From contig JBLHWZ010000004.1 in NCBI GenBank assembly GCA_047629415.1, forward strand, positions 1 to 61,753: a stretch of DNA of 61,753 nucleotides, in the 5' to 3' direction. This DNA is from Bradymonadia bacterium. GTDB lineage: Bacteria > Myxococcota_A > Bradymonadia > REDH01. Below are positions 11,945 to 25,318 of the stretch, one piece after another. Each line of letters opens with the position of its first letter. Positions within the stretch are counted from its first letter, which is position 1. The translations under genes were made by a program, and so were the position numbers. Under the pieces are notes generated by a model that was not told where the DNA came from, did no database searches, and was given only the letters and a program-made list of their open reading frames with translations.

Positions 11945-12367
11945 CTAGGATGCCCGCGCCGGCCTCGTCGCCCGCCAGAAGTCCTCAAGCGCCCGCAGCT
12001 TCGTCACGAGATCCGACACGTTGGCTGGCTTTACTAGGAACGCGTTCGCGCCTTCTTCTAAGCAACCGCGAACGTCGTCCTCGGAGTTGGAGGTCGACAT
12101 CATGATGACCGGCAGATGCCGAGTCTCCGCTTTTGCGCGAATGCGCTCCAACGTTCCCTTCCCATCGAGTCGCGGCATGTTGAGGTCGAGCACTACCAAG
12201 TACGGACGGGTATTCGCGTCCGAAGAGAGGTATTCGACGACCTCGACTCCGTCCCGAACGATCCGCAACTCACTTGCCAGATTGGCCCGGCGTGCAGCGG
12301 TCTGAAGCAGAAGCACGTCGGCTTCGTCGTCCTCTGCGACGAGAATAAGTGGGGCTCTTTCAAGCAT
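11945..12367 (-). CDS. Single-domain response regulator (Rcp1-like)
   Basis: AEDDEAD, LDLNMP, MSTS, KP receiver motifs; overlaps the kinase stop. Confidence 0.92.
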   Translation of the reverse strand: MLERAPLILVAEDDEADVLLLQTAARRANLASELRIVRDGVEVVEYLSSDANTRPYLVVLDLNMPRLDGKGTLERIRAKAETRHLPVIMMSTSNSEDDVRGCLEEGANAFLVKPANVSDLVTKLRALEDFWRATRPARAS

Positions 12368-14378
12368 CGGAGGGGGCTACCTGTCGGCTGCTAAGGGGCA
12401 GTTTGATGGTGAACTTGGCTCCCTGGCCGGGGGCACCGTCCGCAACGACCGTTCCGCCATGACCGTGAACGATTTTTCGGCAGATCGCCAGACCGATCCC
12501 TGTACCGTCCCTTGAGTTGGAACGCTGCAGGCGTTTGAACGGTACGAATATATGGTCGGCGTACTGTGGGTCGAACCCAATTCCGGTGTCGCAAACCTCG
12601 ATCACCGCGAAACCCTCGAGGTCTTCTCGCGAGAGATGAATCTGTGGCGCCTCATCGTGTTTCGCATAACGAATCCCGTTAGAGATCAGGTTCTGGAAGA
12701 CCCGCCGCAGTTGATTCGAATCGGCGCAGACCTCGCCGAGAGAGTCGAACGTGAAGGTCGCTCCCGACTCAGAGATCGCCACCTCAAGATCGTCCATGAC
12801 GTACCCGACCAGGTCGTCGAGCGATACGAGCTCAAAGTGCAACGTACTGCGGCCAGCCTGAGCGTATTCGACGAGATCGTCGACAAGGTGGGTGAGCCGC
12901 CCCGCAGCGTCGTCCATGTAGTGCATGTACTGAAGCGTGGCGTCACTGAGGTCGTCGTCGCTCTCGCCCAGCAATCCGGCAAACGCGCGGATCTTACGCA
13001 AGGGCTCCTTCATGTCGTGGGAGGCCGCGGCTGTGAAGGTCTTGAGGTCGGCGTTCGTACTCGCGAGCGCGTTGTTGCGTTCCTCAAGGCGCTGCCGGTT
13101 CTCCGTACGTTCGGAGATGTCGCGGATGACCAGTACGAGGACGGGTTTCCCGAAGATGCCAGCGGTGCGCCCCGTCGAGATCTCCACGGGGACGTTCGAG
13201 CCGTCGCTTCTGCGTCCTACGCGTTCTTGCACCTCCGATCCGGCGGGCGGCGCCCAACTCCCGTCTGCGAAAAGAAGTGAGGCGTTCTCTCGCGTGAGGG
13301 TGATTGGATCGTGGCCGAAGATGATGCCACACGCCTTGTTCGCCTGCAGGATAGCGCCGTCCGCTTGCACGAGAATTACCGCGTCCATCGCGGCGCCGAC
13401 GATCGCCTCGAGCCGCTCAGCGTTCTCCTCGACGTCCCTGACGGCCTCGCCGATGCGTACTTCCATGGAGGCCATCACCTCCTTCAGCGCGGCATCAGCG
13501 GCTCGTCTATCCGTGATGTCGATAATGCAGCCGACCATGAGGCCGGTCTCTTCATCGGGGGCGCGAACCTCGTCGCGGATCCAGCGGTAGTCGCCCCGCA
13601 CGGTCATCACGCGGTACTCATGCACATGCCGGCCTCGCTGCTGCGCGACGATCAGTCCTCTTTCGGCGTTGCTCTCATCATCGGGGTGGGCCCAACTCCG
13701 TCGGCCGTTCTCCTGTGTTAGCTCCTCCGGTCGCAGCCCAAAAATACGGGCGACATTCGGCGACACGAAGGCGTAGTCGTAAGGCTCCCGGCAGCGCGCG
13801 GTGTAGAGCATCGCTGGACTGGAAGCCGCTAGGTAGTCCATTTGCTGTGTGAGGGCGTTGGCTCTCAGGATCGCCCTTCCGGCGACGCCTTCGTTGGAGA
13901 ATCCCCGGCCAAAGAGGATGACGATCAAGCCCGCGGCGATGACGATGATGGCGACGATCCAGTTCAGGCGGTCGATGTGCGCACCGAGGGCTACGGAGAT
14001 TGTCGCGTTCTCTGAGCGAATCTGGTCGACGATGGCGCCGGCGGCGGCGAGCGCACGATCGGGGTCGTCGGCCATCTCACGAATAGCCTCGATCGCGTTC
14101 GCAAGTTCGGGATCGGCAACTCGCACCGACTCAGCCAGCCGGTGCGCAGCAGCAGCAGCTTCATCAGGTTGCGCGGGGATGCCCTCGTCAGTGTCTCCAA
14201 GGATCGAGCGCTCGATTCCGCGGACCTCGATCAACCATCCGACGCGAACGCTGATCTCGTCGCGCAACTCGTGCACTTCGACAGCAAACTTGACGGACCA
14301 AATGGTCGCAACGATTACCAACGCCGAGACGAGGAAGGAGAGGACTCTGAGCTGCGCCGATTTGGTGCGAGGAGTCAG
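12360..14378 (-). CDS. Membrane PAS-PAS sensor histidine kinase (start codon uncertain)
   Basis: Two TM segments, PAS-PAC (HPDD, YRWIRD), second PAS, H-box SHDMKEPLRKI, NLISNG, DTGIG, GTGIGLAIC. The track ORF to 14678 overlaps dnaK, so the real start is probably near 14380. Confidence 0.88.
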   Translation of the reverse strand: MTPRTKSAQLRVLSFLVSALVIVATIWSVKFAVEVHELRDEISVRVGWLIEVRGIERSILGDTDEGIPAQPDEAAAAAHRLAESVRVADPELANAIEAIREMADDPDRALAAAGAIVDQIRSENATISVALGAHIDRLNWIVAIIVIAAGLIVILFGRGFSNEGVAGRAILRANALTQQMDYLAASSPAMLYTARCREPYDYAFVSPNVARIFGLRPEELTQENGRRSWAHPDDESNAERGLIVAQQRGRHVHEYRVMTVRGDYRWIRDEVRAPDEETGLMVGCIIDITDRRAADAALKEVMASMEVRIGEAVRDVEENAERLEAIVGAAMDAVILVQADGAILQANKACGIIFGHDPITLTRENASLLFADGSWAPPAGSEVQERVGRRSDGSNVPVEISTGRTAGIFGKPVLVLVIRDISERTENRQRLEERNNALASTNADLKTFTAAASHDMKEPLRKIRAFAGLLGESDDDLSDATLQYMHYMDDAAGRLTHLVDDLVEYAQAGRSTLHFELVSLDDLVGYVMDDLEVAISESGATFTFDSLGEVCADSNQLRRVFQNLISNGIRYAKHDEAPQIHLSREDLEGFAVIEVCDTGIGFDPQYADHIFVPFKRLQRSNSRDGTGIGLAICRKIVHGHGGTVVADGAPGQGAKFTIKLPLSSRQVAPSDA

Positions 14379-14574
14379 CGGCCGAAGGGATCGAGAGTAG
14401 TGAATCGTTGGAGCATAGCTGACGGAAGTGCCCGGATCCACGATCGGGCAGTGGGAGACCGCAAAAACAGAGGTTTGGGGCGAGTGGTCGCCCCCTGTCG
14501 TGTTTGACAGCCGCGGCCCGTATCTTGTAGGTCTGGCCGCCTCTAACCCCTTACGTACACCCCAGACTCTAGGG

Positions 14575-16140
14575 ATGGCTAAGATCATCGGGATCGACCT
14601 CGGAACATCGAATAGCTGTGTTGCAATTCTCGAATCCGGCCAAGCGACCGTTCTTCCAAACGCTGAGGGCTCGCGCACGACTCCTTCCGTGGTGGCATTC
14701 CCGGAAAGCGGGGAGCGGCTCGTGGGGCAACAGGCGAAGCGTCAAGCGATCGTAAATCCGTCTCGAACGGTTTTCGGCGTTAAGCGTTTGTTGGGCCGTC
14801 GATTCCGCTCCGAGGCCGTCGACGACCTCGGAGAGTTGTTACCCTTCAATCTCGTTGAGAATCTCAATGGCGACGTCTGGGTCGACATTGAAGGCGAGAG
14901 CTTCTCGCCGCAGGAGATCTCCGCGGCGATTCTCGCGAAGATGAAGTCCAGCGCTGAAGACTACTTTGGCGAAGAGGTGAAGGAAGCCGTGATTACGGTT
15001 CCAGCCTACTTCGACGACGCGCAGCGACAGGCGACGAAAGACGCCGGACGTATCGCTGGCCTCGAAGTACGACGCATCATCAACGAGCCCACCGCGGCCG
15101 CGCTCGCCTACGGACTCCGCCAAAAGGAGCTCTCTCATATCGCGGTCTTCGATCTCGGCGGCGGCACTTTCGACATCTCGATCGTCCGGGTTGAGGACAA
15201 CGTCTTCGAGGTGCTCGCAACGTCGGGGAACAACTTGCTCGGCGGAGACGACTTCGACCGCGCGGTGCTTGGCCAACTGTTGAGCGTCTTCGAGGAAGAG
15301 CACGGAATTGATCTGCGCGGCGAGCCCGTTGCGCTGCAGCGACTCCGAGAGGCGGCCGAGACAGCCAAGTGCGAGCTCTCCTCGCTCTCCGAAACGAACA
15401 TCAACCTCCCATTCTTGGCGGTCGATGCAAGCGGGCCGAAGCACCTCAATCTGGTCCTCAGCCGGGTTGAGCTGAACGACATTTGCGCTTCTCTTGTCGC
15501 GAAGCTGCACGAGCCGTGCAAATCAGCCATCGCTGATGCGGGACTCACCACCGCCGAACTCAACGAGGTCCTCCTCGTCGGCGGTATGACGCGCATGCCC
15601 TTGGTCCAACAGCAGGTGGAGGATATCTTCGGTAGGACGCCCCGCAAGGGCGTGAACCCCGACGAAGTCGTCGCATGCGGCGCAGCCGTCCAGTCTGGCA
15701 TCCTCGGCGGAGAACTCCGCGAGGTCATCCTCATGGACGTGACACCGCTGTCCCTGGGAATCCGTTCCATCGGCGACCGCATGTCGATCGTGGTGCCAAA
15801 GAACACGCCGATCCCCACCGAGAAGACGAAGGTCTTTACGACGACAGACGACAATCAGGACGTCGTGACCATCTCGGTGGTGCAGGGTGAGGACCCGAAA
15901 GCCTCGAAGAACCGGATGCTTGGTCGATTCCACCTCTCGGGGATTCCGGCTCTGCCGGCCGGCAAGGCGCGAGTTGAGGTGCAGTTCAACATCGATACCG
16001 ATGGCATCGTGCACGTCACCGCCGAGGATGTAGAGACCAGTCGCGGCACCTCGATCCACATCACCGATCATGGTGGCCTCTCCAAGGAGAACGTCGCGAG
16101 GGCGACGACCCGAACGGATCACCAGATCATCGAGTCATGA
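14575..16140 (+). CDS. dnaK: Hsp70/DnaK paralog lacking the C-terminal helical lid (521 aa)
   Basis: MAKIIGIDLGTSNS, TPSVVAF, TVPAYFDDAQRQAT, INEPTAAA, DLGGGTFD, LVGGMTR, NPDEVVA, DVTPLSLG; ends about 20 aa after the SBD-beta subdomain. Confidence 0.9.
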   Translation: MAKIIGIDLGTSNSCVAILESGQATVLPNAEGSRTTPSVVAFPESGERLVGQQAKRQAIVNPSRTVFGVKRLLGRRFRSEAVDDLGELLPFNLVENLNGDVWVDIEGESFSPQEISAAILAKMKSSAEDYFGEEVKEAVITVPAYFDDAQRQATKDAGRIAGLEVRRIINEPTAAALAYGLRQKELSHIAVFDLGGGTFDISIVRVEDNVFEVLATSGNNLLGGDDFDRAVLGQLLSVFEEEHGIDLRGEPVALQRLREAAETAKCELSSLSETNINLPFLAVDASGPKHLNLVLSRVELNDICASLVAKLHEPCKSAIADAGLTTAELNEVLLVGGMTRMPLVQQQVEDIFGRTPRKGVNPDEVVACGAAVQSGILGGELREVILMDVTPLSLGIRSIGDRMSIVVPKNTPIPTEKTKVFTTTDDNQDVVTISVVQGEDPKASKNRMLGRFHLSGIPALPAGKARVEVQFNIDTDGIVHVTAEDVETSRGTSIHITDHGGLSKENVARATTRTDHQIIES

Positions 16141-16565
16141 GTTCGAAGCGCGCCGCGACGATCCTGCTCGCTGACGACGATGAGGCCGATCGGATCATGA
16201 CTCGGCGCGCGTTGCGCAGCGCCGGACTCGGGAACGAAGTTCTCGAGGTGGCCAACGGAGAGTCCTTGCTTCGAGCCATGCGGGGGGAGGGGGAGTACGC
16301 GAATCGCGGAGACGTGCACTTCGTGCTGCTGGATCTGAAGATGCCTGGGATGCACGGCATCGAAGTTCTCAATTCGATCCGGGAGGATCCCAAGCTCAGC
16401 GGAGTGCCGGTGGTCGTGCTAACGGGGTCTGAGGAGGCCAACGACATCCGGTCCGCGTACCTCGCTGGCGCTGCCTCCTACCTCGCCAAGCCTGTCACTT
16501 TCGACGGCATCCTTCGCGCCGTTCGACAGCTCGAGGGCTACTCCTTGGCGATCGTTAAAGAGTAG
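16137..16565 (+). CDS. Single-domain response regulator (Rcp1-like)
   Basis: LADDDEAD, LLDLKMP, LTGS, YLAKP; ATGA overlap with dnaK. Confidence 0.92.
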   Translation: MSSKRAATILLADDDEADRIMTRRALRSAGLGNEVLEVANGESLLRAMRGEGEYANRGDVHFVLLDLKMPGMHGIEVLNSIREDPKLSGVPVVVLTGSEEANDIRSAYLAGAASYLAKPVTFDGILRAVRQLEGYSLAIVKE

Positions 16566-16652
16566 CGTTACGTTAGAAGCGGGGGGTCGACGGTTGATAG
16601 TGGCCGCGCCGACGCGTACACTATTACAACCCTGTTGTTTCTGGAGTGCGTA

Positions 16653-17036
16653 ATGTCCGCCAAAGTCCTGGTCGTCGATGACAGCGCTACGGTCCGAGAT
16701 CTCCTTGAGCGCAGATTGGCCCGGAAGGGGTTCCGAGTCGTGACCGCCGCGGACGGAGTCGAAGGTGTGGAGTTCTGCACACGCGAACTCCCGGACGTGG
16801 TGCTCATGGACTTACACATGCCGGTGATGGACGGATGGGCTGCGACAAGGGCTATCCGGGCGAATGAAGCGACCGCCCAGATTCCGGTCCTGATCCTCAC
16901 CGCCTACAACTCTTCGAGGGATCGCTCTGCGGCGATGGATGCCGGCGCAAGCGATTTTGACTCAAAGCCCATCTCGATGCCGCGCTTGATCGCCAAGATG
17001 GAGCGATTGCTCGGGCTTGAGCCTAGCGAAGAGTAG
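16653..17036 (+). CDS. Single-domain response regulator (DivK/CheY-like)
   Basis: VLVVDD, LMDLHMPVMDGW, LTA, DFDSKP; GGAG ribosome-binding site before ATG 16653. Confidence 0.92.
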   Translation: MSAKVLVVDDSATVRDLLERRLARKGFRVVTAADGVEGVEFCTRELPDVVLMDLHMPVMDGWAATRAIRANEATAQIPVLILTAYNSSRDRSAAMDAGASDFDSKPISMPRLIAKMERLLGLEPSEE

Positions 17037-17041
17037 ACGCG

Positions 17042-18103
17042 TTGGGACACTCCCCGGACCTACCTCAACCGCCTCACTACGCGGGTGAAGAGCTCTCGCT
17101 GCCGGTCCTTGAGCAGTGGATCGGTTCGGAGCGCGATGTCCAACGCGAGAGGGTCAACGAACTCAATACTATCCGAGCGCAGAACGAGAGCCTCCAAACC
17201 TCGCTGGCAGAGGAGCTTAACAAGCTGCGCGAGTTTTCGGAGACGGACAGCTCTGCGGCTGGAGGTCTGTTCGCGAAGCTGCTCAGTGTGATTCGACCGA
17301 ACTCCGGGCGGCCGCAGACCACACATTCCGTAGAAGCGCTCCTACGACAACAATACGAATTGAGCGTGAAACGACTGCGAGAGGCAGCGGACCATGCGGA
17401 CCGATTGGAGGCGTCGGAGGCCGACCTGCATGATGAGATTGAGCGGCTCAATCGCCGGATTATCGATTCAGCAGATAACCACGGCCGCGCGTCTCGCTAT
17501 GTGTTCGAACTTAAACAAGTAGCCGCCGAACTGCAGAATACGAAAGCAAACACTGCGCTCGAAGATGCCAAGCTCGAAGCATCAAACGATCGAGTGAGGC
17601 GACTACTGATCACGCACGGAACTCGGCAGAAACTCTACGGAACCGCTCGCGAGCGCCTCTCGCGTTTGCGCGACAACGCGCGCGCGCTAGCCAGCACAAT
17701 TGGCCGGCTTCGTGCGGACATTACTTCCTACGTTCAGGTGGCCGGCCAGAAGCTCGACATGACGGCCGGCCAGGTCCAGGCGCTCGGTGCAGCTGCTGAC
17801 GCATCGGTCGTGGTTCTTGAGCTTGAGGCGTCGCTGGAGGCGCTCAGCGAATCGATGAATCACGCTGCACGCTTTGTCGCGGACACCCAAGTGTACTTCC
17901 GAGAGAACGTAGACAGCATGATCGACCAGATGCAGATCTACGACACAGAGACCGCGGCTTTGCTCGAGGCGAACGCCGAACTCGACCGGCTCGGCGACTC
18001 GTACGTACTCTCAGAGATTCTGGCCGAACTCGACAACGTGTCGGAGCTCGACGAATTCGAACGGAAGCTCGAAGCGGCGATCCAGGAGGTATCGGCCGAG
18101 TGA
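17042..18103 (+). CDS. Hypothetical coiled-coil protein, possibly TelA (toxic anion resistance)-like
   Basis: 353-aa all-helical ORF with amphipathic GGLFAKLLSV followed by SVEALLRQQY. The family call is only a resemblance. Confidence 0.7.
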   Translation: MGHSPDLPQPPHYAGEELSLPVLEQWIGSERDVQRERVNELNTIRAQNESLQTSLAEELNKLREFSETDSSAAGGLFAKLLSVIRPNSGRPQTTHSVEALLRQQYELSVKRLREAADHADRLEASEADLHDEIERLNRRIIDSADNHGRASRYVFELKQVAAELQNTKANTALEDAKLEASNDRVRRLLITHGTRQKLYGTARERLSRLRDNARALASTIGRLRADITSYVQVAGQKLDMTAGQVQALGAAADASVVVLELEASLEALSESMNHAARFVADTQVYFRENVDSMIDQMQIYDTETAALLEANAELDRLGDSYVLSEILAELDNVSELDEFERKLEAAIQEVSAE

Positions 18104-19086
18104 GCGCGCTTACTACGCTTGCGCTTAGCGCCGATGACGCGAATCCGTTGTTGAAGCGGTGGGCGCGCGCACTCCACGCCGGTCGTCTCAACCACAAGTA
18201 TACTGACGGTCGTAGCCTCCGGGCGTCCATGTTGGCGCTCAACGACCCGGCCCGCCGCGCTCTCTATGACGACATCGAGTTCGATGCGCGCACTCTCTTG
18301 CCCACTTATCGAGAGTGGACGCGTCTCCTTGCTGACTCCGAGGGGGCAGAAGCCCAATTGCAGAGCTTCGGCCCCCGCCTGCCCTTGGAGCGAAAAGCGC
18401 AGCGCCGTGGGCGTGAGGTCGACCATCGACTGCTGGCTAAGTGGGACTACTACGAGCGGCTGCAGGCGTTGGAGATGCCTGGCCTGGATACGATCTCCAT
18501 CCAGCTTCGGCGGCACGACCTGAGCACTGAGACTCTCTACGCGACCATCGTGTTCGACAAACACGATTCATCAGGGGTGTTCGTTCGCTACACGATCGCG
18601 ATGGCGCAACGAGACAGCGCCTGGGGAAAGCCGCTTGTATCGCTGGACGACCGCGAGAACGCAGACCACAGCGATGTGCTGCGCGGGTTGGTCTATCGGT
18701 ACGCGTCTACGAACGCGGAGATGACCTTCCTCAAGCTCAGCGAACATCCGGACGTATACGTCGAGTGGGTCCACCGCGGGACGATTGGGCCGGCGTATGG
18801 CGAACTGAACGATGAGCTCGCGCTGCCCGGAATGCACGAGATCGCCAAGTCTGGGGGATGGATCGCCAGCTTTGGCCTAGAGATGGCGGACCGCACGATC
18901 GAGCGGTCAACAAACAACGATCCGCTCGCTGGTGGACAGGTTCTTGGGCCTTTGCTGCAGGCACGTCGCACGCTGGGATACAACGTGCATCGTGACCGAA
19001 AATTCGTAGTATCACGTGGATATCAGGACGAGCTTGCGAAGTTCGTAACAATCAGGGGCTGTCAGAATGTCGTCTATGGAATCTAG
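18100..19086 (+). CDS. Hypothetical protein (328 aa)
   Basis: GTGA overlap with the upstream gene; GGAGG ribosome-binding site; globular composition. Confidence 0.75.
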   Translation: MSALTTLALSADDANPLLKRWARALHAGRLNHKYTDGRSLRASMLALNDPARRALYDDIEFDARTLLPTYREWTRLLADSEGAEAQLQSFGPRLPLERKAQRRGREVDHRLLAKWDYYERLQALEMPGLDTISIQLRRHDLSTETLYATIVFDKHDSSGVFVRYTIAMAQRDSAWGKPLVSLDDRENADHSDVLRGLVYRYASTNAEMTFLKLSEHPDVYVEWVHRGTIGPAYGELNDELALPGMHEIAKSGGWIASFGLEMADRTIERSTNNDPLAGGQVLGPLLQARRTLGYNVHRDRKFVVSRGYQDELAKFVTIRGCQNVVYGI

Positions 19087-20926
19087 CAGCGATGGGTCGG
19101 CTCGAGAGATGGAACTCGCTGCGGCAATGGTCGAGAACCTCGCTACGCAGTTCAAGTCCGCGCTCGACTTCTATCGAGAGCTGGTCCAAAATTCGATCGA
19201 TGCAGGAAGTCCGCGGATCGATGTCTGGTTGGAGTATCAGCCAGGAGAGGGCGGCGAGGGCGCGATCGTGATCCATGTCGACGACTTCGGTGACGGCATG
19301 AACGAAGCGATCATCGACAACGAGTTGACTCAACTTTTTGCGTCATCAAAGGACAACGATCTTACGAAGATTGGAAAGTTCGGGATTGGGTTCGTGTCAG
19401 TCTTTGCGCTGCGCCCCAAGGCCGTAATGGTCACGACCGGACGAGCCGGAGAGTATTGGCAAGTAATCTTTGGGGAGGACCGCTCCTTTGTGAAGACTCG
19501 AATCGACGAGCCTGTCGAGGGCACCCAGGTCGCGCTCTTTCTGGCCGGCGACTATCAACGCTACACGACTCTCTCTCGCGATTCGTTGGCGAGCCTGAAG
19601 AAGTGGTGCGTGCACTCCGAGACCGAGATCACTTTTGAGGATCGGTCGTCGGAGCTGCGCGGTGCGCGGCCTGAACTCATCACGATCAACGAGCCGTTTG
19701 GCGTTACCGGGCGGTTCGCGACGACCTACGAGGAGCCCGGCACAGTGATCGCGGTCGCCTTCTCTCCTGAGCCTGAGTGGGGTTTCTACAACCGCGGGCT
19801 CACTCTCTTACAGACCGGTGTGTACGAAGAGGCTTTTCCGGCTGAGCACCGAGAAGAACTGGGAATTGTCTCCCTAAAGCTGAAGTCGAGGTTCCTTGAG
19901 CACACCCTCACGCGAGAGACGGTTCTCCGAGATGAGAACTATGAAAAGGCTCTGGCGCGCGTGCTGGCGGTCGTTCGAGGTGAGCTGAGGGAAGCCGTGA
20001 TCGCGTCGATGGAGGAAGTCGCCGCGCTCCCGAGTTTGGAGATCGCCGACCTGGCGGATTACGCGATCGCCGCAGGTTTCGTCTCGCGCTGGCCGGCGAA
20101 GGTCTACGAAGAGTGGGCCGACCGAAAGATTCTCCGGCAACACGGCGGAGCCCCACTGTCTCTTCGAGAAGTCACCGAATCCGCTTGGACCCGGGGTCGC
20201 GTGTGCCTATCGGAGCGGTTCGACGAGTCGGTGCGACTGCTGACGGAGGGGGGCGAACGAGTGGTCTTCTCCTTCGCGCCGAACGCCTCGAGCTTGCCGG
20301 CTGCGGGAGCAGACGGGGCACCTCTGCTCGCACCCGTGTATCGAATCCTCGTAAACTGGATGCAACATGTCGAGCGCAAGCCGGCGACATTTCGAGGATG
20401 GGGCGCGATCGCGCGCGAAGTATCCGACTACGCTGGCGCAATCGTGAAGGGTTTGGGTGCCTGGGACTTCTCAACGCTCGACTCGGAGAGTTGGAGCCGC
20501 CGGCGCGCCCTCTCGTCGTTTGCCGCGGCGGACCGTGTACTGATCAGGGTGGAGCATGAAGCGCTGAGTACGGAGGCAGCGGCTCTAATCCAGGGCGCCG
20601 GGGCGGTGCTTGAGCGCGCTGATGCGGGTTACGGAACGCTCGAGGCGTGCAGTATCAGCGGCGGGTCCACTCCGCTCTTCGTGCTCGCGCAGAAGTTTGA
20701 GGACTCGATGTTGCTCCCTCCTGACCACTCGCTGCCTGGTCGCCGACCGGACGTCGCCGTGAACATTCGACACCCTCATTTCGAGCACGCGTTGTCCCTG
20801 CATGCGGCCCACCCAGCGTTGGCGCTCTACATCTTGTCGAAGGCGCTGCTCCTGAAAGAGGACCGTCTCCTGGGCCTGGATCCATCGCTGCTATCGGCGG
20901 CGCTGTCGGCGGGAGGTGCAGAATGA
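19067..20926 (+). CDS. GHKL (Hsp90/HtpG-like) ATPase
   Basis: FYRELVQNSIDA (N-box), DDFGDGM (G1), IGKFGIGFVS (G2), GTQV; middle-domain-like LEHTLTRETVLRDENY. Start could be 19109. Confidence 0.88.
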   Translation: MSSMESSSDGSAREMELAAAMVENLATQFKSALDFYRELVQNSIDAGSPRIDVWLEYQPGEGGEGAIVIHVDDFGDGMNEAIIDNELTQLFASSKDNDLTKIGKFGIGFVSVFALRPKAVMVTTGRAGEYWQVIFGEDRSFVKTRIDEPVEGTQVALFLAGDYQRYTTLSRDSLASLKKWCVHSETEITFEDRSSELRGARPELITINEPFGVTGRFATTYEEPGTVIAVAFSPEPEWGFYNRGLTLLQTGVYEEAFPAEHREELGIVSLKLKSRFLEHTLTRETVLRDENYEKALARVLAVVRGELREAVIASMEEVAALPSLEIADLADYAIAAGFVSRWPAKVYEEWADRKILRQHGGAPLSLREVTESAWTRGRVCLSERFDESVRLLTEGGERVVFSFAPNASSLPAAGADGAPLLAPVYRILVNWMQHVERKPATFRGWGAIAREVSDYAGAIVKGLGAWDFSTLDSESWSRRRALSSFAAADRVLIRVEHEALSTEAAALIQGAGAVLERADAGYGTLEACSISGGSTPLFVLAQKFEDSMLLPPDHSLPGRRPDVAVNIRHPHFEHALSLHAAHPALALYILSKALLLKEDRLLGLDPSLLSAALSAGGAE

Positions 20927-23900
20927 GCGCACTCGAGGCGCTGATTTCTGATCGGAAGAAGGCTGGGGCTTCTTCCGGAAGAAAGCGATTCAAGCTGGCT
21001 CGCCAACGCGCGGTCGCGAAGATGCGGAAGTTTGCTCTGGCGGACCCATCGTTCTTTGTTCTGGAGCTGATCCAGAGCGCTATCGCGCATGGCGCAGCGA
21101 TGGTGCACATCGGTTCAGATGAAGAGGAGTTTTCCAGGACGGGCGGCAAATTCTCGATGATTTACGGTCGCCAACACTACCGTCGGGAAGAGTTGGGGCA
21201 GCTCTTCGACTTCCTCTTCACGGCGAAAGGCGATCTCGAGAACGCGCATCTGCGGGACCTCGCGATCGGTCTCAACGCGCTGCTGAGTTTCAACCCCAAG
21301 GAGGTCCAGGTTCTTACAGGCGACGGAACGCTCAAGGGCAGCACCCTTATGAGCGTGGAAGACGGGGGGAATATCGTCGAACTCGGGCGGCCCGACGAGC
21401 CGGTACGCGGGGTACATGTGAGGGCGACGGGTATTCGTCACCCGTCGGTCCAGGGCGCGGGTCTCTCGCTTCGAAGGGCGGCAAAGGCCGCGACCATCGT
21501 CTCCGTCGTTCAAGAGCGGTGCATGCTCACGCCGGTGCCCGTCGTTGTGAATGGGGAGTCGCTCTCTGGCTACTCCTCGGACCGGTCGCTCCCACTTTTT
21601 GGCTACAGGAACAGAACGGCGCTCGACGAAGGGGACCTCTATGGGACCATCGGCATGACTGGCAGCTACCCGCTGCGCGGCATTCGCATCATGGTGCGCG
21701 GAGTTTGGATTGAGACCATCCCTCATCCTAGTGACACACAGGGCAAGAAGGGGGAGTGGAAGGACAAGGAAGGCGGCTACCTCGGGGGCGCCGTTTCGTT
21801 CGATCGCTTGCGCAAGACCGCCGACCACGCCGGGATTGTGCGGGACGAGCGCTTTCGTGAACTCCTGGCTCGGCTCGACCCCTATGTGGCGAGAGCTCGA
21901 GGTGTAAAAGGCGCGGTCCAAGCTGCGAGCTATCAGTCGCTCGAAGGACCACTCTCGCTCCGCGAGACGCGAGAACTTGTTCTCGCCAGCGAGAGCGTGG
22001 TGTGTCTGGTCGATAGGTTGGAGGCGTTGAGTAGTGACCGTTTTACTTCGGGGTTGACTCGGACTGGCTATGGCCCGTCGTTGAGAACGAATGCCACGAC
22101 GGTGGAACATCTGACGAGCCTCTCTGGGGGGCGGGTCGATATTGTCGAGGTGAGACCCGGCGAGCAAACAAGTGTCGCCGTGCACCTCAGCCTCGGACGC
22201 TCACCCCTGCCGCCGAAGCCATGGCTCGTTGAGTCGATCGCGGTTGCCTCGATGGGCTTCGCGGAGTTTGCTGCGTCCATGCCGAGTGCCGGTGACCGAG
22301 TGCGGGACGCCGCGGAGGGAAGGTCTGAGTCGCCCGTGCGAATGAGGCTCTTCACGCCCGTCGCGCCTGAAGAGCCGGACTTCGTTTTGCCCGTGCAGAT
22401 CCGTATCGCGGAACGGACGATCGCGACCCATCGAATACCTGCGGCGCATCCGGGCCATGTCCTTGTGGTCGATCTTCCCGGCTTCAGTCCGGACCGTCTT
22501 TGGGAACCAAGGGCTGCCCAAACAGATAAAAATCGTGCGTTCGCTGCGATCGCGGAACGAGCTGCGTCCTTGTCCCAAGGTGCGCTTGAAGCCGCTGCAC
22601 AGGGCGCCATTCGCACGTTGGTCGCTGGTACGATCGAGCCGAAATCTACAGCCGCCTATAAGGCTCTCTCTGTGATATCGAACAATGGCGTCTTGCGTTG
22701 GGAGTTCGACTCGGAGGGCGTCGCGTTCTGGGTTTCCGTTCCGGAACAATGGGAGCCGCTGCTCGCAGCAAAGTTGCTAAGGGCCGTCTCTGGCGAGACG
22801 AGAAGTCTGCAAGAGCTCGGCCAAACAATGAGCAACAACCGCGGCCAGATCCGGTGGGTCGAGGACGACGGCCGAACTTGCTCGGAGCCGAAGACCCTGC
22901 GGCTTAACTCGCTGGAGCTGCACTCGCTCACGGCCCTGCTGGGGGCGAACGTCCTAGATCGCTATCTCCCCACTCACGAGCCCGACCCAGAGGACGCATA
23001 CCGTGAGTTCGTGCCAGGGAAAACCTCGGCTGACGCACGGTATCAGAGTGTTCGAGCTGCTCAACTGAAGATGGTGGCGCAGCGCGCCACGGGTCGGCCG
23101 ACCGATGGCGGGTTCGTGCAAATAACCGATGGTGTCTGGCTGACGATCGACGACATCCTCGGCGATGGGAACAGGTCAGGCGATCGCTCACCGAACCGAT
23201 GCGAGGTCGGTCGGAGAGCAGACCGCATTCTGAAGATACCTGACTCCGCGGCGACATCTCAGCCACTCTTTGCAGGCCCGGGGGCACACGTACTGCGGTG
23301 CACGCCGTTCGAAATGGCCCTGCTTAGCGAACTCGGGCTCTGGGGCGATCCAGATGGAGCCTCGGCAGGTGCGGTCTATGATGCGGAGCTTCTGTGTCCG
23401 TCGGAGCTCGACGAACCCGGACTGGTCGGGGCGATCGGCATCGCCTACGACGCGGACGTCCCCAAGCTGGTGGTGGTCGACGATAGCGCGGGCACCGCTC
23501 GGATCGGTTCGCCGGCGCGTAAGTTTGGAATTTGCGGTCGATTGCGGGTCACAAGCGCAGCGGGGCTCGAAGGCCGCGTGGTTGAGGAGTGCCGCAGGGT
23601 GCTAGAGCGAGCGATCGTGCAAGTCGCGAACGGGACGGATTCAACGGGTCGACTTGGTGAGACGCTCCTCGCGTTCACGGCTCGGCATATGTCGATCAAC
23701 GACGACGGCGGCCACGCGAGTCCGGCGGTTTCGGACCCCATCGCACTCAGAGTGCTGAGACTTCCGCTCTTCCCGGCGGCCGTCGGGCTTCCTGAGACCG
23801 CGTTGGATTTGATCGCGAGGATGCGGGTCGGAAAGGACGCTCCACGCGACGAAAGGTGGTCTCCCGATCGTAGAAGATTCGCGCAGAGGCTGCAGTCGCT

Positions 23901-24357
23901 ACTCGACGAGTCAATGCGCTTCGAGCCTACCGACGTCAGCCTGGGCTCGGCGTCAGACGATCCCCTAGAAGCCGCGCGGGAAAGGCTGGGACTGGCCCAG
24001 CCAGACTTTCACACGGTTCTCGCGGGCTGGGCCACAGACGTGAATGACGTGATCAGCAGGTATCGTCCAGACCCCGATGGAGTTTCGATCAGATTGCGTT
24101 GGCTCCCCTCCGGACTCTTTCACGTATTTATGGGTAGTCGCTCGAGCTCACTCTTTGATCCGGAGTCGAGCTTCCCAGTCCCCGCATGCTTGGCCCCGTC
24201 GTCCATGACCGATCCGCGGAGCGGAGAGCAGATCGCTACGGTCAGTCTGCTCGTGTACGCTAAAGCGAACGAGCTATTGGAGGCGGTCACCAATGAGCAC
24301 GAGCGGATCTTCCAACAACGCGTGACGACTGCGTTGTTGAAAGGGGAGTTGGGGTAG
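20923..24357 (+). CDS. Large protein with degenerate N-terminal Hsp90-like (GHKL) domain
   Basis: FVLELIQSAIAHGA (N-box without Asn/Asp), LAIGLNAL (degenerate G2), LRKTADHAGIVRDERF; ATGA overlap and GGGAGG ribosome-binding site. Confidence 0.78.
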   Translation: MSALEALISDRKKAGASSGRKRFKLARQRAVAKMRKFALADPSFFVLELIQSAIAHGAAMVHIGSDEEEFSRTGGKFSMIYGRQHYRREELGQLFDFLFTAKGDLENAHLRDLAIGLNALLSFNPKEVQVLTGDGTLKGSTLMSVEDGGNIVELGRPDEPVRGVHVRATGIRHPSVQGAGLSLRRAAKAATIVSVVQERCMLTPVPVVVNGESLSGYSSDRSLPLFGYRNRTALDEGDLYGTIGMTGSYPLRGIRIMVRGVWIETIPHPSDTQGKKGEWKDKEGGYLGGAVSFDRLRKTADHAGIVRDERFRELLARLDPYVARARGVKGAVQAASYQSLEGPLSLRETRELVLASESVVCLVDRLEALSSDRFTSGLTRTGYGPSLRTNATTVEHLTSLSGGRVDIVEVRPGEQTSVAVHLSLGRSPLPPKPWLVESIAVASMGFAEFAASMPSAGDRVRDAAEGRSESPVRMRLFTPVAPEEPDFVLPVQIRIAERTIATHRIPAAHPGHVLVVDLPGFSPDRLWEPRAAQTDKNRAFAAIAERAASLSQGALEAAAQGAIRTLVAGTIEPKSTAAYKALSVISNNGVLRWEFDSEGVAFWVSVPEQWEPLLAAKLLRAVSGETRSLQELGQTMSNNRGQIRWVEDDGRTCSEPKTLRLNSLELHSLTALLGANVLDRYLPTHEPDPEDAYREFVPGKTSADARYQSVRAAQLKMVAQRATGRPTDGGFVQITDGVWLTIDDILGDGNRSGDRSPNRCEVGRRADRILKIPDSAATSQPLFAGPGAHVLRCTPFEMALLSELGLWGDPDGASAGAVYDAELLCPSELDEPGLVGAIGIAYDADVPKLVVVDDSAGTARIGSPARKFGICGRLRVTSAAGLEGRVVEECRRVLERAIVQVANGTDSTGRLGETLLAFTARHMSINDDGGHASPAVSDPIALRVLRLPLFPAAVGLPETALDLIARMRVGKDAPRDERWSPDRRRFAQRLQSLLDESMRFEPTDVSLGSASDDPLEAARERLGLAQPDFHTVLAGWATDVNDVISRYRPDPDGVSIRLRWLPSGLFHVFMGSRSSSLFDPESSFPVPACLAPSSMTDPRSGEQIATVSLLVYAKANELLEAVTNEHERIFQQRVTTALLKGELG

Positions 24358-24371
24358 CGCTGAGAGCTCGC

Positions 24372-24395
24372 CGCGGCCGCTTTTCATCGGCCGCG
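24372..24395 (+). terminator. GC-rich hairpin after the last operon gene (no U-tract)
   Basis: CGCGGCCG-cttttcat-CGGCCGCG, 14 nt after the stop. Confidence 0.4.
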
Positions 24396-24670
24396 CGTCG
24401 CTCCGCGGGTGCCGTAGACCAGTCGCAGTTCCCGTCGCAGCAGTTCTCCGCGTCGCATGCATCAGCGGTTACTCGCCGCGTGTTGTACGAAGGCAAGACC
24501 AGCGATTTCGACTTCTTACTGAGCTCGTACAGCCCCGATGCGGGCTGTCGGGCGACATGTCCGTCGCGGGCCGCAGCGAAGTCTGGTTCACTGAACCTGA
24601 TCGCCTCGGTGGCGCATTCGTTCCTGCAGCAAGTAACTGCAAACATCTACTCATCCCCCAACCTCAGCAA

Positions 24671-25318
24671 ATGTCGGAAGGCCGCCCGAGCCTGGCTCAG
24701 CTTCCAGTTTTCCCGCTCCCCGGGGCGTTCGTGTTTCCGCATCTCGTAAGCCCGCTGCACATTTTCGAGCCGCGGTATTGCCGGATGGTGGAAGATGCGC
24801 TCGCGGGAGACCGGTTGATCGCCATCGTACAGCCAGACCAGACACGCCCAGCAAACGGACCGGATGCCCCGGCCGTGTACCAACATGGAGGGGTTGGACG
24901 TATAGGAAGACACGAGCGCCTTGCCGACGGTCGCTTCAATATCCTGCTGGAGGGTGTTGGTCGAATGCGCATCGTCGAGGAACATCAGAACGGCCTGCTC
25001 TACCGGACGGTAGAGGCCGAGTGGTTCGACGATGAGCGCAACGAGCCCGAAGAGGATGAGCTCGCGGCTACCGCGCGTAGCCTAGCGAGCTCAATGGCAC
25101 GATATGCGGAGCCTAGCCGCGCCGCGTTGTGGCTACAGATCGCGTCCCCAGCGATCAACGCCGAAGTGCTCAGCAACGTGTTCCCGCGCGTGGTCTACAC
25201 GGAGCCGGGGCCGAAGCAGGCGATGCTTGAGCTGCCCTCCGTTCCCGGACGACTGAAGCGCCTGGTAGAGGACCTACAGATGATGTTGCTGGCGCACGCA
25301 GTGCCCGGGCAGGCGTAA
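24671..25318 (+). CDS. LON peptidase N-terminal substrate-binding domain protein
   Basis: LPVFPLPGAFVFP, LHIFEPRY..MVEDAL, DGRFNILLEG..R; no protease domain. Confidence 0.88.
   Translation: MSEGRPSLAQLPVFPLPGAFVFPHLVSPLHIFEPRYCRMVEDALAGDRLIAIVQPDQTRPANGPDAPAVYQHGGVGRIGRHERLADGRFNILLEGVGRMRIVEEHQNGLLYRTVEAEWFDDERNEPEEDELAATARSLASSMARYAEPSRAALWLQIASPAINAEVLSNVFPRVVYTEPGPKQAMLELPSVPGRLKRLVEDLQMMLLAHAVPGQA

Follow-up and report, generated by a model that had tools for sequence, protein, structure and literature searches.

The window analyzed here is a 61,753-nucleotide (nt) stretch (contig JBLHWZ010000004.1, assembly GCA_047629415.1; contig C4 in our numbering) from a Bradymonadia bacterium whose draft genome (G000) comprises 494 contigs and is 84.6% complete. 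Its + strand holds seven co-oriented open reading frames (ORFs) between positions 14575 and 24357. We divided these into unit A (14575 to 17036), which encodes an Hsp70-type protein and two receivers, RR1 and RR2, and unit B (17042 to 24357), a module of four proteins named by their lengths, CC353, U328, GHKL619, and U1144. An earlier sequence-only reading had proposed all seven genes as one candidate undescribed chaperone-fold system. The results described below suggest that the locus probably consists of two juxtaposed units and that unit B may encode an asymmetric clamp built from two ATPase folds of the GHL (gyrase, Hsp90, MutL) type.

The last two genes of the module encode what the sequence-only reading had called an active/inactive Hsp90-like pair, and this description was borne out. 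In GHKL619, the Bergerat motifs (E38, N42, D45, D73xGxG77, G103KFGIG108, and G152-T153) were invariant in 23 of 23 sequences, whereas the corresponding ATP motifs were intact in none of 27 U1144 sequences. In the latter, the position of the Mg-binding Asn is occupied by Ala (17 sequences), Ser (8), or Gly (2), and that of the Asp in DxGxG is occupied by Tyr (23) or Trp (4). The nearest solved relatives of GHKL619 by sequence were Hsp90 N-domains and sacsin (E of ~2e-4 against the PDB). Alignment of U1144 with the GHKL619 family by hhalign gave an E value of 7e-4 over 118 columns, in the register of the motifs, at a probability of 26%. We read the two proteins as paralogues.

To look beyond the sequence, we relied on an AlphaFold model of U1144 with a mean predicted local distance difference test (pLDDT) score of 77.1. 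Foldseek matched this model to TRAP1 and other Hsp90 chains with E values down to 1.4e-12, and VIA-align superimposed residues 24 to 333 on GRP94 with a Z score of 16.8 (root mean square deviation, 4.3; 264 residues aligned) and on TRAP1 with a Z score of 15.8. In the model, residues 24 to 333 form a GHL ATPase domain followed by a transducer, and Hsp90 is nominally the closest of the matched families. Residues 334 to 1144 gave only weak matches, such as that of residues 823 to 903 to YicC (Z, 6.7), and a profile search of the PDB with the U1144 alignment returned no match at an E value of ≤10.

The two proteins are Hsp90-like in their ATPase module and are not members of the Hsp90 family. The Hsp90 model PF00183 matched neither GHKL619 nor U1144 at an E value of ≤0.01, and in a whole-genome search it matched only on contigs C2 and C58; against the HtpG model NF003555, GHKL619 scored 30.7, with a cutoff of 371. 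Models of the sacsin type came just below their cutoffs for GHKL619 (PF25794, 28.7 versus 32.8; NF047352, 45.9 versus 50), and the GHKL619 homolog in locus L102 scored 36.7 with PF25794 (SACS), above the cutoff of 32.8. Neither a DUF3684 core nor a C-terminal effector domain, such as a nuclease, was found in GHKL619 or U1144 with Pfam at an E value of ≤0.01.

Complex modeling, one of the checks proposed in the sequence-only reading, was carried out with GHKL619 (residues 1 to 619) and U1144 (residues 1 to 340), together with three controls. The pair reached an ipSAE (interaction prediction score from aligned errors) of 0.62, compared with 0.00 for the top control of the three; in a benchmark, the mark used for this score was attained by 58 of 80 solved complexes and by 2 of 110 mismatched pairs. 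At least 87% of contacts were common to the runs, with a partner pLDDT of at least 77. In the predicted interface, an N-terminal strap of U1144 (residues 2 to 41) lies against the GHKL619 ATPase domain, an arrangement also seen when GHL dimers are closed. The model supports binding between GHKL619 and U1144, but because N-terminal dimers of GHL proteins have already been solved, this result may reflect likeness to those dimers and not an affinity of the pair's own.

The other two module proteins belong to no family that we could name. CC353 is a well-conserved helical protein (mean identity of 50% in the family alignment) with no family above cutoff in Pfam or NCBIfam. A profile search of the PDB gave matches at chance level only, and the sole match in PADLOC was a coiled-coil match to LmuB (E, 4e-4). 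The label "TelA-like," which the sequence-only reading had attached to it, was dropped; PF05816 matched 0 of 11 family members at an E value of ≤1, and the only lead toward TelA was a neighboring cluster in the Atlas, 10% of whose members carry TelA. U328 matched no family in Pfam, NCBIfam, PADLOC, or PHROGs. Its model is of high confidence (pLDDT, 95.3; predicted template modeling [TM] score, 0.91) and shows an N-terminal half made of helices as well as an antiparallel sheet against which helices pack. Fold searches with this model returned best E values of 0.14 (Foldseek, PDB) and 0.038 (BFVD), and the best match in a wide VIA search (T-fold enzymes, 97 residues) had a Z score of 5.9, below the stated noise level of 7 to 8; a profile search of the PDB with the U328 alignment likewise gave no match at an E value of ≤10. 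Thus, the fold searches envisaged in the sequence-only reading placed U1144 beside Hsp90 but left U328 without a match to solved folds above noise, a result that does not amount to proof of a new fold. The Atlas model of U328 is poor (pLDDT, 0.31; TM score, ≤0.32). Gene callers start U328 at residue 44, leaving out positions 18100 to 18228 and giving a 285-amino-acid (aa) form, as does the Atlas record. Because residues 1 to 43 align with conserved positions in homologs (such as R29 and L30), translation more likely starts at position 18100, with a GTG that overlaps the stop codon of CC353.

We then asked how far the four genes are conserved together. A word-indexed search gave 27 relatives of U1144 and 11 of U328, and an exhaustive profile search gave 250 cluster representatives of U328 at an E value of ≤1e-3. 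For U1144, one genome per species was retained, and the resulting 75 loci were scanned with the window proteins by tblastn; judged by their record titles, all came from Myxococcota (Nannocystaceae, Enhygromyxa, Plesiocystis, Paraliomyxa, and Polyangia), Bradymonadales, or unclassified metagenome-assembled genomes. A U328-anchored set of 61 loci from 58 genomes was scanned with profiles of the four module families. Across a phylum sample of 301 genomes, relatives of U328 were found in 58 and relatives of U1144 in 66, and all 58 fell within the 66. The matches in the eight U1144-only genomes were weak (1e-9 to 1e-17) and covered ~100 N-terminal residues of frames of 1800 to 2300 aa, and we read them as probable distant paralogues. 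Among 41 near relatives, an identical set of nine genomes held relatives of both proteins, and in one family, the module was present in 21 of 26 sampled genomes.

Gene order revealed a finer structure. A GHKL619 homolog lay directly 5′ of U1144 in 55 of the 62 U1144-anchored loci in which the 5′ sequence extends for at least 1.9 kb, and CC353 lay directly 5′ of U328 in 50 of the 59 U328-anchored loci with room. Linkage between these two pairs was looser: CC353 (>100 bits) and U328 were found in 13 and 16 of the 75 U1144-anchored loci, respectively, and U1144 was found in 28 of the 61 U328-anchored loci, co-directionally in 16 and on the opposite strand in 12. The arrangement of the pairs varied accordingly, being co-directional, convergent (as in loci L101 and L102, where CC353-U328 faces U1144 and GHKL619), or far apart (>1 Mb in the complete genome G172). 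Unit B is therefore made of two cassettes, CC353-U328 and GHKL619-U1144, that travel together. They always share genomes and keep their linkage when the region is rearranged, which marks them as a functional module. So far, the module has been seen only in the Myxococcota, including the Bradymonadales; among its carriers are cultured, nonpathogenic species such as Plesiocystis pacifica SIR-1, Enhygromyxa salina, and Paraliomyxa miuraensis.

The flanking genes mostly change between lineages, and the neighbors of the module are of a housekeeping type (for example, RCC1-like protein, Ser/Thr kinase, ABC transporter, short-chain dehydrogenase/reductase, and RNase D). The genes 5′ of CC353 are heterogeneous, with only three look-alike pairs, from closely related genomes, among 44 candidates, and no conserved fifth gene was found there among the 33 of these 44 that were scanned with Pfam. 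Some loci carry additional genes. An AAA ATPase gene of ~562 aa (PF00004; E, 4.5e-6) sits between U328 and GHKL619 in loci L054 and L067; the only other loci with such a gene near the module are L010 and L032, and it may be an occasional fifth component. Tandem extra U1144-like genes or GHKL/U1144-like pairs occur in L005, L010, L016, L040, L051, and L068. Giant paralogues that start with a degenerate GHL N-domain were also seen (L099:1471-10401, − strand, 2976 aa; L100:2690-9193, − strand, 2167 aa; also in G035:C11 and G026:C170), and some genomes hold three such genes in tandem; Pfam found no domain in these proteins and hence gave no hint of an effector.

Unit A has a different character. 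Residues 4 to 512 of its Hsp70 match positions 1 to 512 of the 599 positions of the PF00012 profile, and the protein scored 768.4 with NCBIfam model NF001413 (cutoff, 648; positions 1 to 510 of 625 matched) and 747.7 with TIGR02350, under its cutoff of 822.55. The actin-like nucleotide-binding domain and the beta-sandwich substrate-binding domain are both present. With a profile match that runs no further than position 512 and a chain of 521 residues, the Hsp70 lacks the C-terminal helical lid, as the sequence-only reading had claimed. Both receivers were also confirmed with PF00072 (RR1, 76.9 bits; RR2, 97.5 bits; cutoff, 30.2), and their translations hold the acidic pocket, phospho-acceptor Asp, Thr, and Lys of receivers (DDD, LLDLKMP, LTG, and AKP in RR1; DD, LMDLHMP, LTA, and SKP in RR2). 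The top NCBIfam match of RR1 was EpsW, at 61.8 bits, far under the cutoff of 200. No DnaJ (PF00226) or GrpE (PF01025) match was found anywhere on the window contig, in agreement with the sequence-only reading. In the same genome, contig C236 carries a canonical grpE-dnaK-dnaJ set and contig C2 encodes HtpG; of several other Hsp70 paralogues, those on C149 and C126 each adjoin a J-domain gene, unlike the Hsp70 of the window. A second paralogue, on C85, likewise has a match that goes no further than profile position 510; one TAA interrupts the matched frame, and only a weak J-like match lies upstream. Unit A thus combines a DnaK paralogue that lacks the lid with two receivers of the phospho-acceptor type and has no J-protein or GrpE of its own.

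By analogy, we infer that unit A may be a signaling-type Hsp70 of the kind represented by StkA of Myxococcus. Short, non-heat-shock DnaK paralogues of this type have a role in type IV pilus and exopolysaccharide signaling. Cyanobacterial DnaK proteins have reportedly been linked to a response regulator and pili. StkA of Myxococcus xanthus is a DnaK homologue of 540 aa that does not respond to heat shock by induction, with an SCP2-like and a small PhaE-like protein encoded after it (PMC4319316). The window Hsp70 resembles StkA in its length (~520 to 540 aa), in its position apart from grpE and dnaJ, and in belonging to a phylum rich in Hsp70 paralogues, but it is followed by receivers instead of SCP2-like and PhaE-like genes; the likeness is one of kind.

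Comparison with related genomes bore directly on whether the two units belong together. A same-genus genome (G001; 95% complete) was colinear with the window over the stretch that starts at ~7500, takes in the upstream receiver and Hsp70, and ends with RR1; beyond RR1, it diverged. Its Hsp70 ortholog is 77% identical to that of the window and that of a genome of the same family (G008) is 72% identical; both are ~519 to 521 aa long, and each adjoins a receiver. In G001, an RR1 homolog (47% identity) directly follows Hsp70 and the ortholog of the divergent receiver upstream (window 11945 to 12367) has been kept, but RR2, CC353, U328, GHKL619, and U1144 were all missing; in G008, Hsp70 is followed by an RR2 homolog (66% identity), again without the module. 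The PAS histidine kinase gene (12360 to 14678) was also missing from the otherwise colinear G001 locus, so that this locus differs by more than the break in synteny after RR1. U328 was found in none of the 12 other genomes of the source family, which makes the source genome the sole carrier of the module among 13.

The module, in turn, was rarely found beside an Hsp70. No Hsp70 was detected in the 75 U1144-anchored loci by tblastn with the window proteins, and one of the 61 U328-anchored loci had an Hsp70 within ~9 kb, namely, an HscA of full length encoded after IscU and HscB in a housekeeping isc operon. At this locus (L112:1553-9181), HscA is followed by proteins of 246 and 247 aa and then by CC353 and U328 homologs with overlapping stop and start codons; the 246-aa protein has a weakly receiver-like N terminus (PF00072, 21.9 bits, under the cutoff), and the 247-aa protein has no assigned family. 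Taken together, these comparisons indicate that the lid-less Hsp70 and its receiver form a unit of their own beside which the module seems to have arrived and that the Hsp70/Hsp90-like neighborhood is apparently a lineage-specific juxtaposition that does not define the system. Thus, the conserved neighborhood postulated by the sequence-only reading held for the four genes of the module, which form a conserved set in the Myxococcota, but not for Hsp70 and the receivers. Their linkage to the rest, the point on which that reading was to stand or fall, was nearly limited to this genome, with two metagenomic contigs described below carrying both.

The layout of the locus is given in Table 1. The seven co-oriented genes, their overlaps and gaps, their domains, and the divergent PAS kinase and receiver upstream were as the sequence-only reading had described them, with ORFs, Pfam, and NCBIfam in agreement. 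A contig from another run (X4) covers positions 16463 to 17792 without differences, beginning in RR1 and reaching past the gap and RR2 as far as CC353, and because it bridges this junction, the juxtaposition of RR1, RR2, and CC353 is no assembly artifact. The longest ORF of the PAS kinase overlaps the Hsp70 start, so its true start is probably further in.

Table 1. Genes and other features of the Hsp70-to-U1144 region (positions in the window)
Feature	Position	Strand	Remarks
Single-domain receiver	11945..12367	-	PF00072, E 6.7e-20; divergent from Hsp70; surroundings of unit A
PAS/HisKA/HATPase_c sensor histidine kinase	12360..14678	-	Pfam PAS_3, HisKA, HATPase_c; longest-ORF limits
Hsp70, DnaK-type, 521 aa, unit A	14575..16140	+	PF00012, E 4.6e-208
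RR1, CheY-like single-domain receiver, unit A	16137..16565	+	PF00072, E 1.7e-21; ATGA overlap with Hsp70
Intergenic gap, 87 nt	16566..16652	+	Between RR1 and RR2
RR2, single-domain receiver, unit A	16653..17036	+	PF00072, E 6.7e-28; ATG at 16653 reads MSAKVLVVDD
CC353, helical/coiled-coil protein, unit B	17042..18103	+	5-nt gap after RR2; no Pfam family above cutoff
U328, alpha+beta protein, unit B	18100..19086	+	GTGA overlap with CC353; no family match
GHKL619, GHL ATPase of Hsp90/sacsin type, unit B	19067..20926	+	20-nt overlap; HATPase_c_3, E 3.8e-10
U1144, degenerate GHL paralogue with ~800-aa extension, unit B	20923..24357	+	ATGA overlap with GHKL619
GC-rich hairpin after U1144	24358..24407	+	-31.5 kcal/mol; indistinguishable from chance

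The only sigma-70-like site in the region (16594 to 16622) lies inside the gap between RR1 and RR2, but promoter-like sites occurred at chance level (1 found versus 1.9 expected), so the site in the gap is a lead only. The hairpin that the sequence-only reading had placed after the last gene did not stand out from 200 shuffled sequences (z, −0.65) and is followed by no T run. Downstream of the module, positions 24557 to 25318 (+ strand) encode a stand-alone protein of the Lon substrate-binding domain (LON_substr_bdg; PF02190; E, 3.5e-31), a homolog of which was found in none of the 75 U1144-anchored loci. Sampled words of positions 14500 to 24400 were present at 84 to 99% in four ice-metagenome runs, one of which may have yielded this DNA, and at 22% in a marine-sediment run.

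Several observations pull against the interpretation of the locus as two separate units with an Hsp90-like clamp. Residues 24 to 333 of the U1144 model are nearly as close to MORC2 (Z, 15.4), topoisomerase II (15.3), and MutL (14.6) as to Hsp90, which leads the other GHL families by only ~1 Z, and because of this proximity, a nucleic acid substrate is as open as a protein substrate. A receiver or kinase match occurred in 8 of the 75 U1144-anchored loci, and in the U328-anchored set, 4 of 61 loci had a receiver or kinase no more than 300 bp from a module gene and 10 had one anywhere in the locus; a weak but recurrent two-component link to the module is thus conceivable. Judged by protein clusters, two metagenomic contigs, of 79,508 and 266,089 nt, each carry a close Hsp70 ortholog (90% and 85% identity, respectively) as well as U328 and U1144 relatives. 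Because both contigs carry both elements, linkage of Hsp70 to the module may persist in a small clade and be functional there. In sacsin, a J domain couples Hsp90-like modules to Hsp70 (PMC3710099), and with this precedent, a coupling of Hsp70 to the module is not far-fetched.

The first of these points raises the question of whether the module is a GHL-type conflict or defense system, similar to Tiamat or MORC, that acts on foreign nucleic acid through an unrecognized effector in U1144 or U328. PADLOC models of TmtA match residues 32 to 114 of GHKL619 (E, 1.7e-6), as do models of the sacsin type, and a preprint presents Tiamat as a prokaryotic, sacsin-related defense ATPase and DNase (10.64898/2026.09.30.754977). 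The patchy distribution of the module in the source family, the tandem duplication of the pair, the giant paralogues, and the closeness of the fold to MORC, topoisomerase II, and MutL would all suit such a system. However, PADLOC had no match to U328 or U1144 and only the coiled-coil match to CC353; no DUF3684, nuclease, protease, or helicase domain was seen; PHROGs had nothing for U328 or U1144 and only motif-level matches elsewhere; and BFVD gave no match. The support thus did not extend beyond a generic ATPase motif region, and the defense role suggested by the sequence-only reading was not upheld. The housekeeping-type neighbors also speak against it, and the presence of the module in 21 of 26 genomes of one family looks like vertical inheritance. 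We regard a defense function as unlikely.

A second possibility is that the seven genes form, at least in this lineage, one phosphorelay-linked remodeling machine of Hsp70 and the Hsp90-like pair, with CC353 and U328 as clients or cofactors. The closeness of the genes (4-, 4-, 20-, and 4-nt overlaps and one 5-nt gap), the X4 contig that spans RR1, RR2, and CC353, and the two related contigs with an Hsp70 ortholog and module proteins are as expected for such a machine; so is the lack of an adjoining J-protein, unlike the paralogues on C149, C126, and C236, and Hsp70-Hsp90 cooperation and the J domain of sacsin are established precedents (PMC3710099). Against it stand the 0 of 75 and 1 of 61 module loci with an Hsp70, the single case being the HscA of an isc operon, as well as the heterogeneity of the genes 5′ of CC353, where the three similar pairs come from the same lineages. 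In addition, Hsp70 and a receiver occur in G001 and G008 although neither has the module, none of the 12 further family members was found to carry it, and the sole gap and sole promoter-like site both sit between RR1 and RR2. We therefore doubt that the seven genes work as one machine.

A bolder version is that the module is a chaperone in its own right, an Hsp90-like heterodimer in which one ATP site is live and the other dead and which has CC353 and the new-fold U328 as its cofactor or client pair; in this lineage, it would have recruited the lid-less Hsp70 and the two receivers, so that the handing over of clients by Hsp70 to the clamp would be gated by phosphorylation. We hold this to be quite improbable; if it were true, an Hsp70-recruiting clamp would be a bacterial counterpart of the Hsp70-coupled, Hsp90-like modules of sacsin. 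Finally, that there is no system and that the genes are neighbors by chance is hardly credible, in that the differences between lineages in most flanking genes are outweighed by the co-occurrence of U328 with U1144 in 58 of 58 genomes, an adjacency that survives rearrangement, the paralogy of GHKL619 and U1144, and a complex model that passes its controls.

Returning to the interpretation that we favor, two juxtaposed units with an asymmetric clamp in unit B, we compared the module with known GHL systems. GHKL619 and U1144 share with members of the Hsp90 family (HtpG, TRAP1, and GRP94) a Bergerat ATPase domain and, after it, the first middle, or transducer, subdomain; Hsp90 proteins provide the top structural matches of U1144 residues 24 to 333 and the top PDB sequence matches of GHKL619, and the predicted dimer of the two proteins uses an N-terminal strap exchange. 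Unlike Hsp90, which is a homodimer, the module has a live and a dead partner encoded by two genes, and U1144 has ~800 extra residues; a canonical HtpG is encoded elsewhere in the genome (C2), and the module proteins fail the Pfam and HtpG cutoffs. With sacsin and Tiamat, the module shares sacsin-type N-terminal ATP-binding models among the top matches of GHKL619, with the L102 homolog above the Pfam SACS cutoff, and the TmtA match, limited to the ATPase motifs. It differs from them in that the window GHKL619 falls under both sacsin cutoffs and has no DUF3684 core or effector domain and in that it is split into two genes and accompanied by two accessory genes. In the text of the Tiamat preprint (10.64898/2026.09.30.754977), the words Myxococc, Bradymonad, Hsp70, and heterodimer are absent.

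Among GHL proteins, an asymmetric pair is not without parallel. Eukaryotic MutL-alpha combines two paralogous GHL subunits with unequal ATP sites in one clamp, and the module resembles it in having paralogous GHL subunits with unequal sites. Unlike MutL-alpha, however, it has no MutL C-terminal endonuclease/dimerization domain, and one of its sites is entirely dead; moreover, the N-terminal domain of MutL was only the fourth-best kind of fold match to U1144.

From these comparisons, we infer how the module might work. ATP-competent GHKL619 and U1144, with its dead ATP site, would form an asymmetric GHL dimer that closes by N-terminal strap exchange once ATP binds the single live site, in GHKL619. 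The ~800-aa extension of U1144 would serve as a working surface or platform that holds the substrate, which could be a protein, as for Hsp90, or a nucleic acid, as for MORC, MutL, and Tiamat. CC353-U328, never found without the GHKL619-U1144 pair, would be its obligate partner, either a client or an adaptor. Given the 5-nt distance between RR2 and CC353, co-transcription of the module and the phosphorelay is probable in this narrow lineage. Transcription of the module with RR2 would then start in the gap before RR2 or arise by read-through from Hsp70, and the module is possibly under phosphorelay control here.

GHL ATPases (gyrase, Hsp90, MutL, MORC, and sacsin/Tiamat) are central machines. 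In the literature, we found no description of this module, that is, of a bacterial two-gene pair of a live and a dead GHL protein with two obligate accessory proteins, and it is best filed as a split, asymmetric GHL-ATPase pair with two accessory proteins of undescribed families. U328 is a good target for structure determination, since its model has a pLDDT of 95 and yet matches no solved fold above noise. The module is present in about a fifth of the sampled Myxococcota genomes, and its occurrence in cultured organisms makes it genetically tractable.

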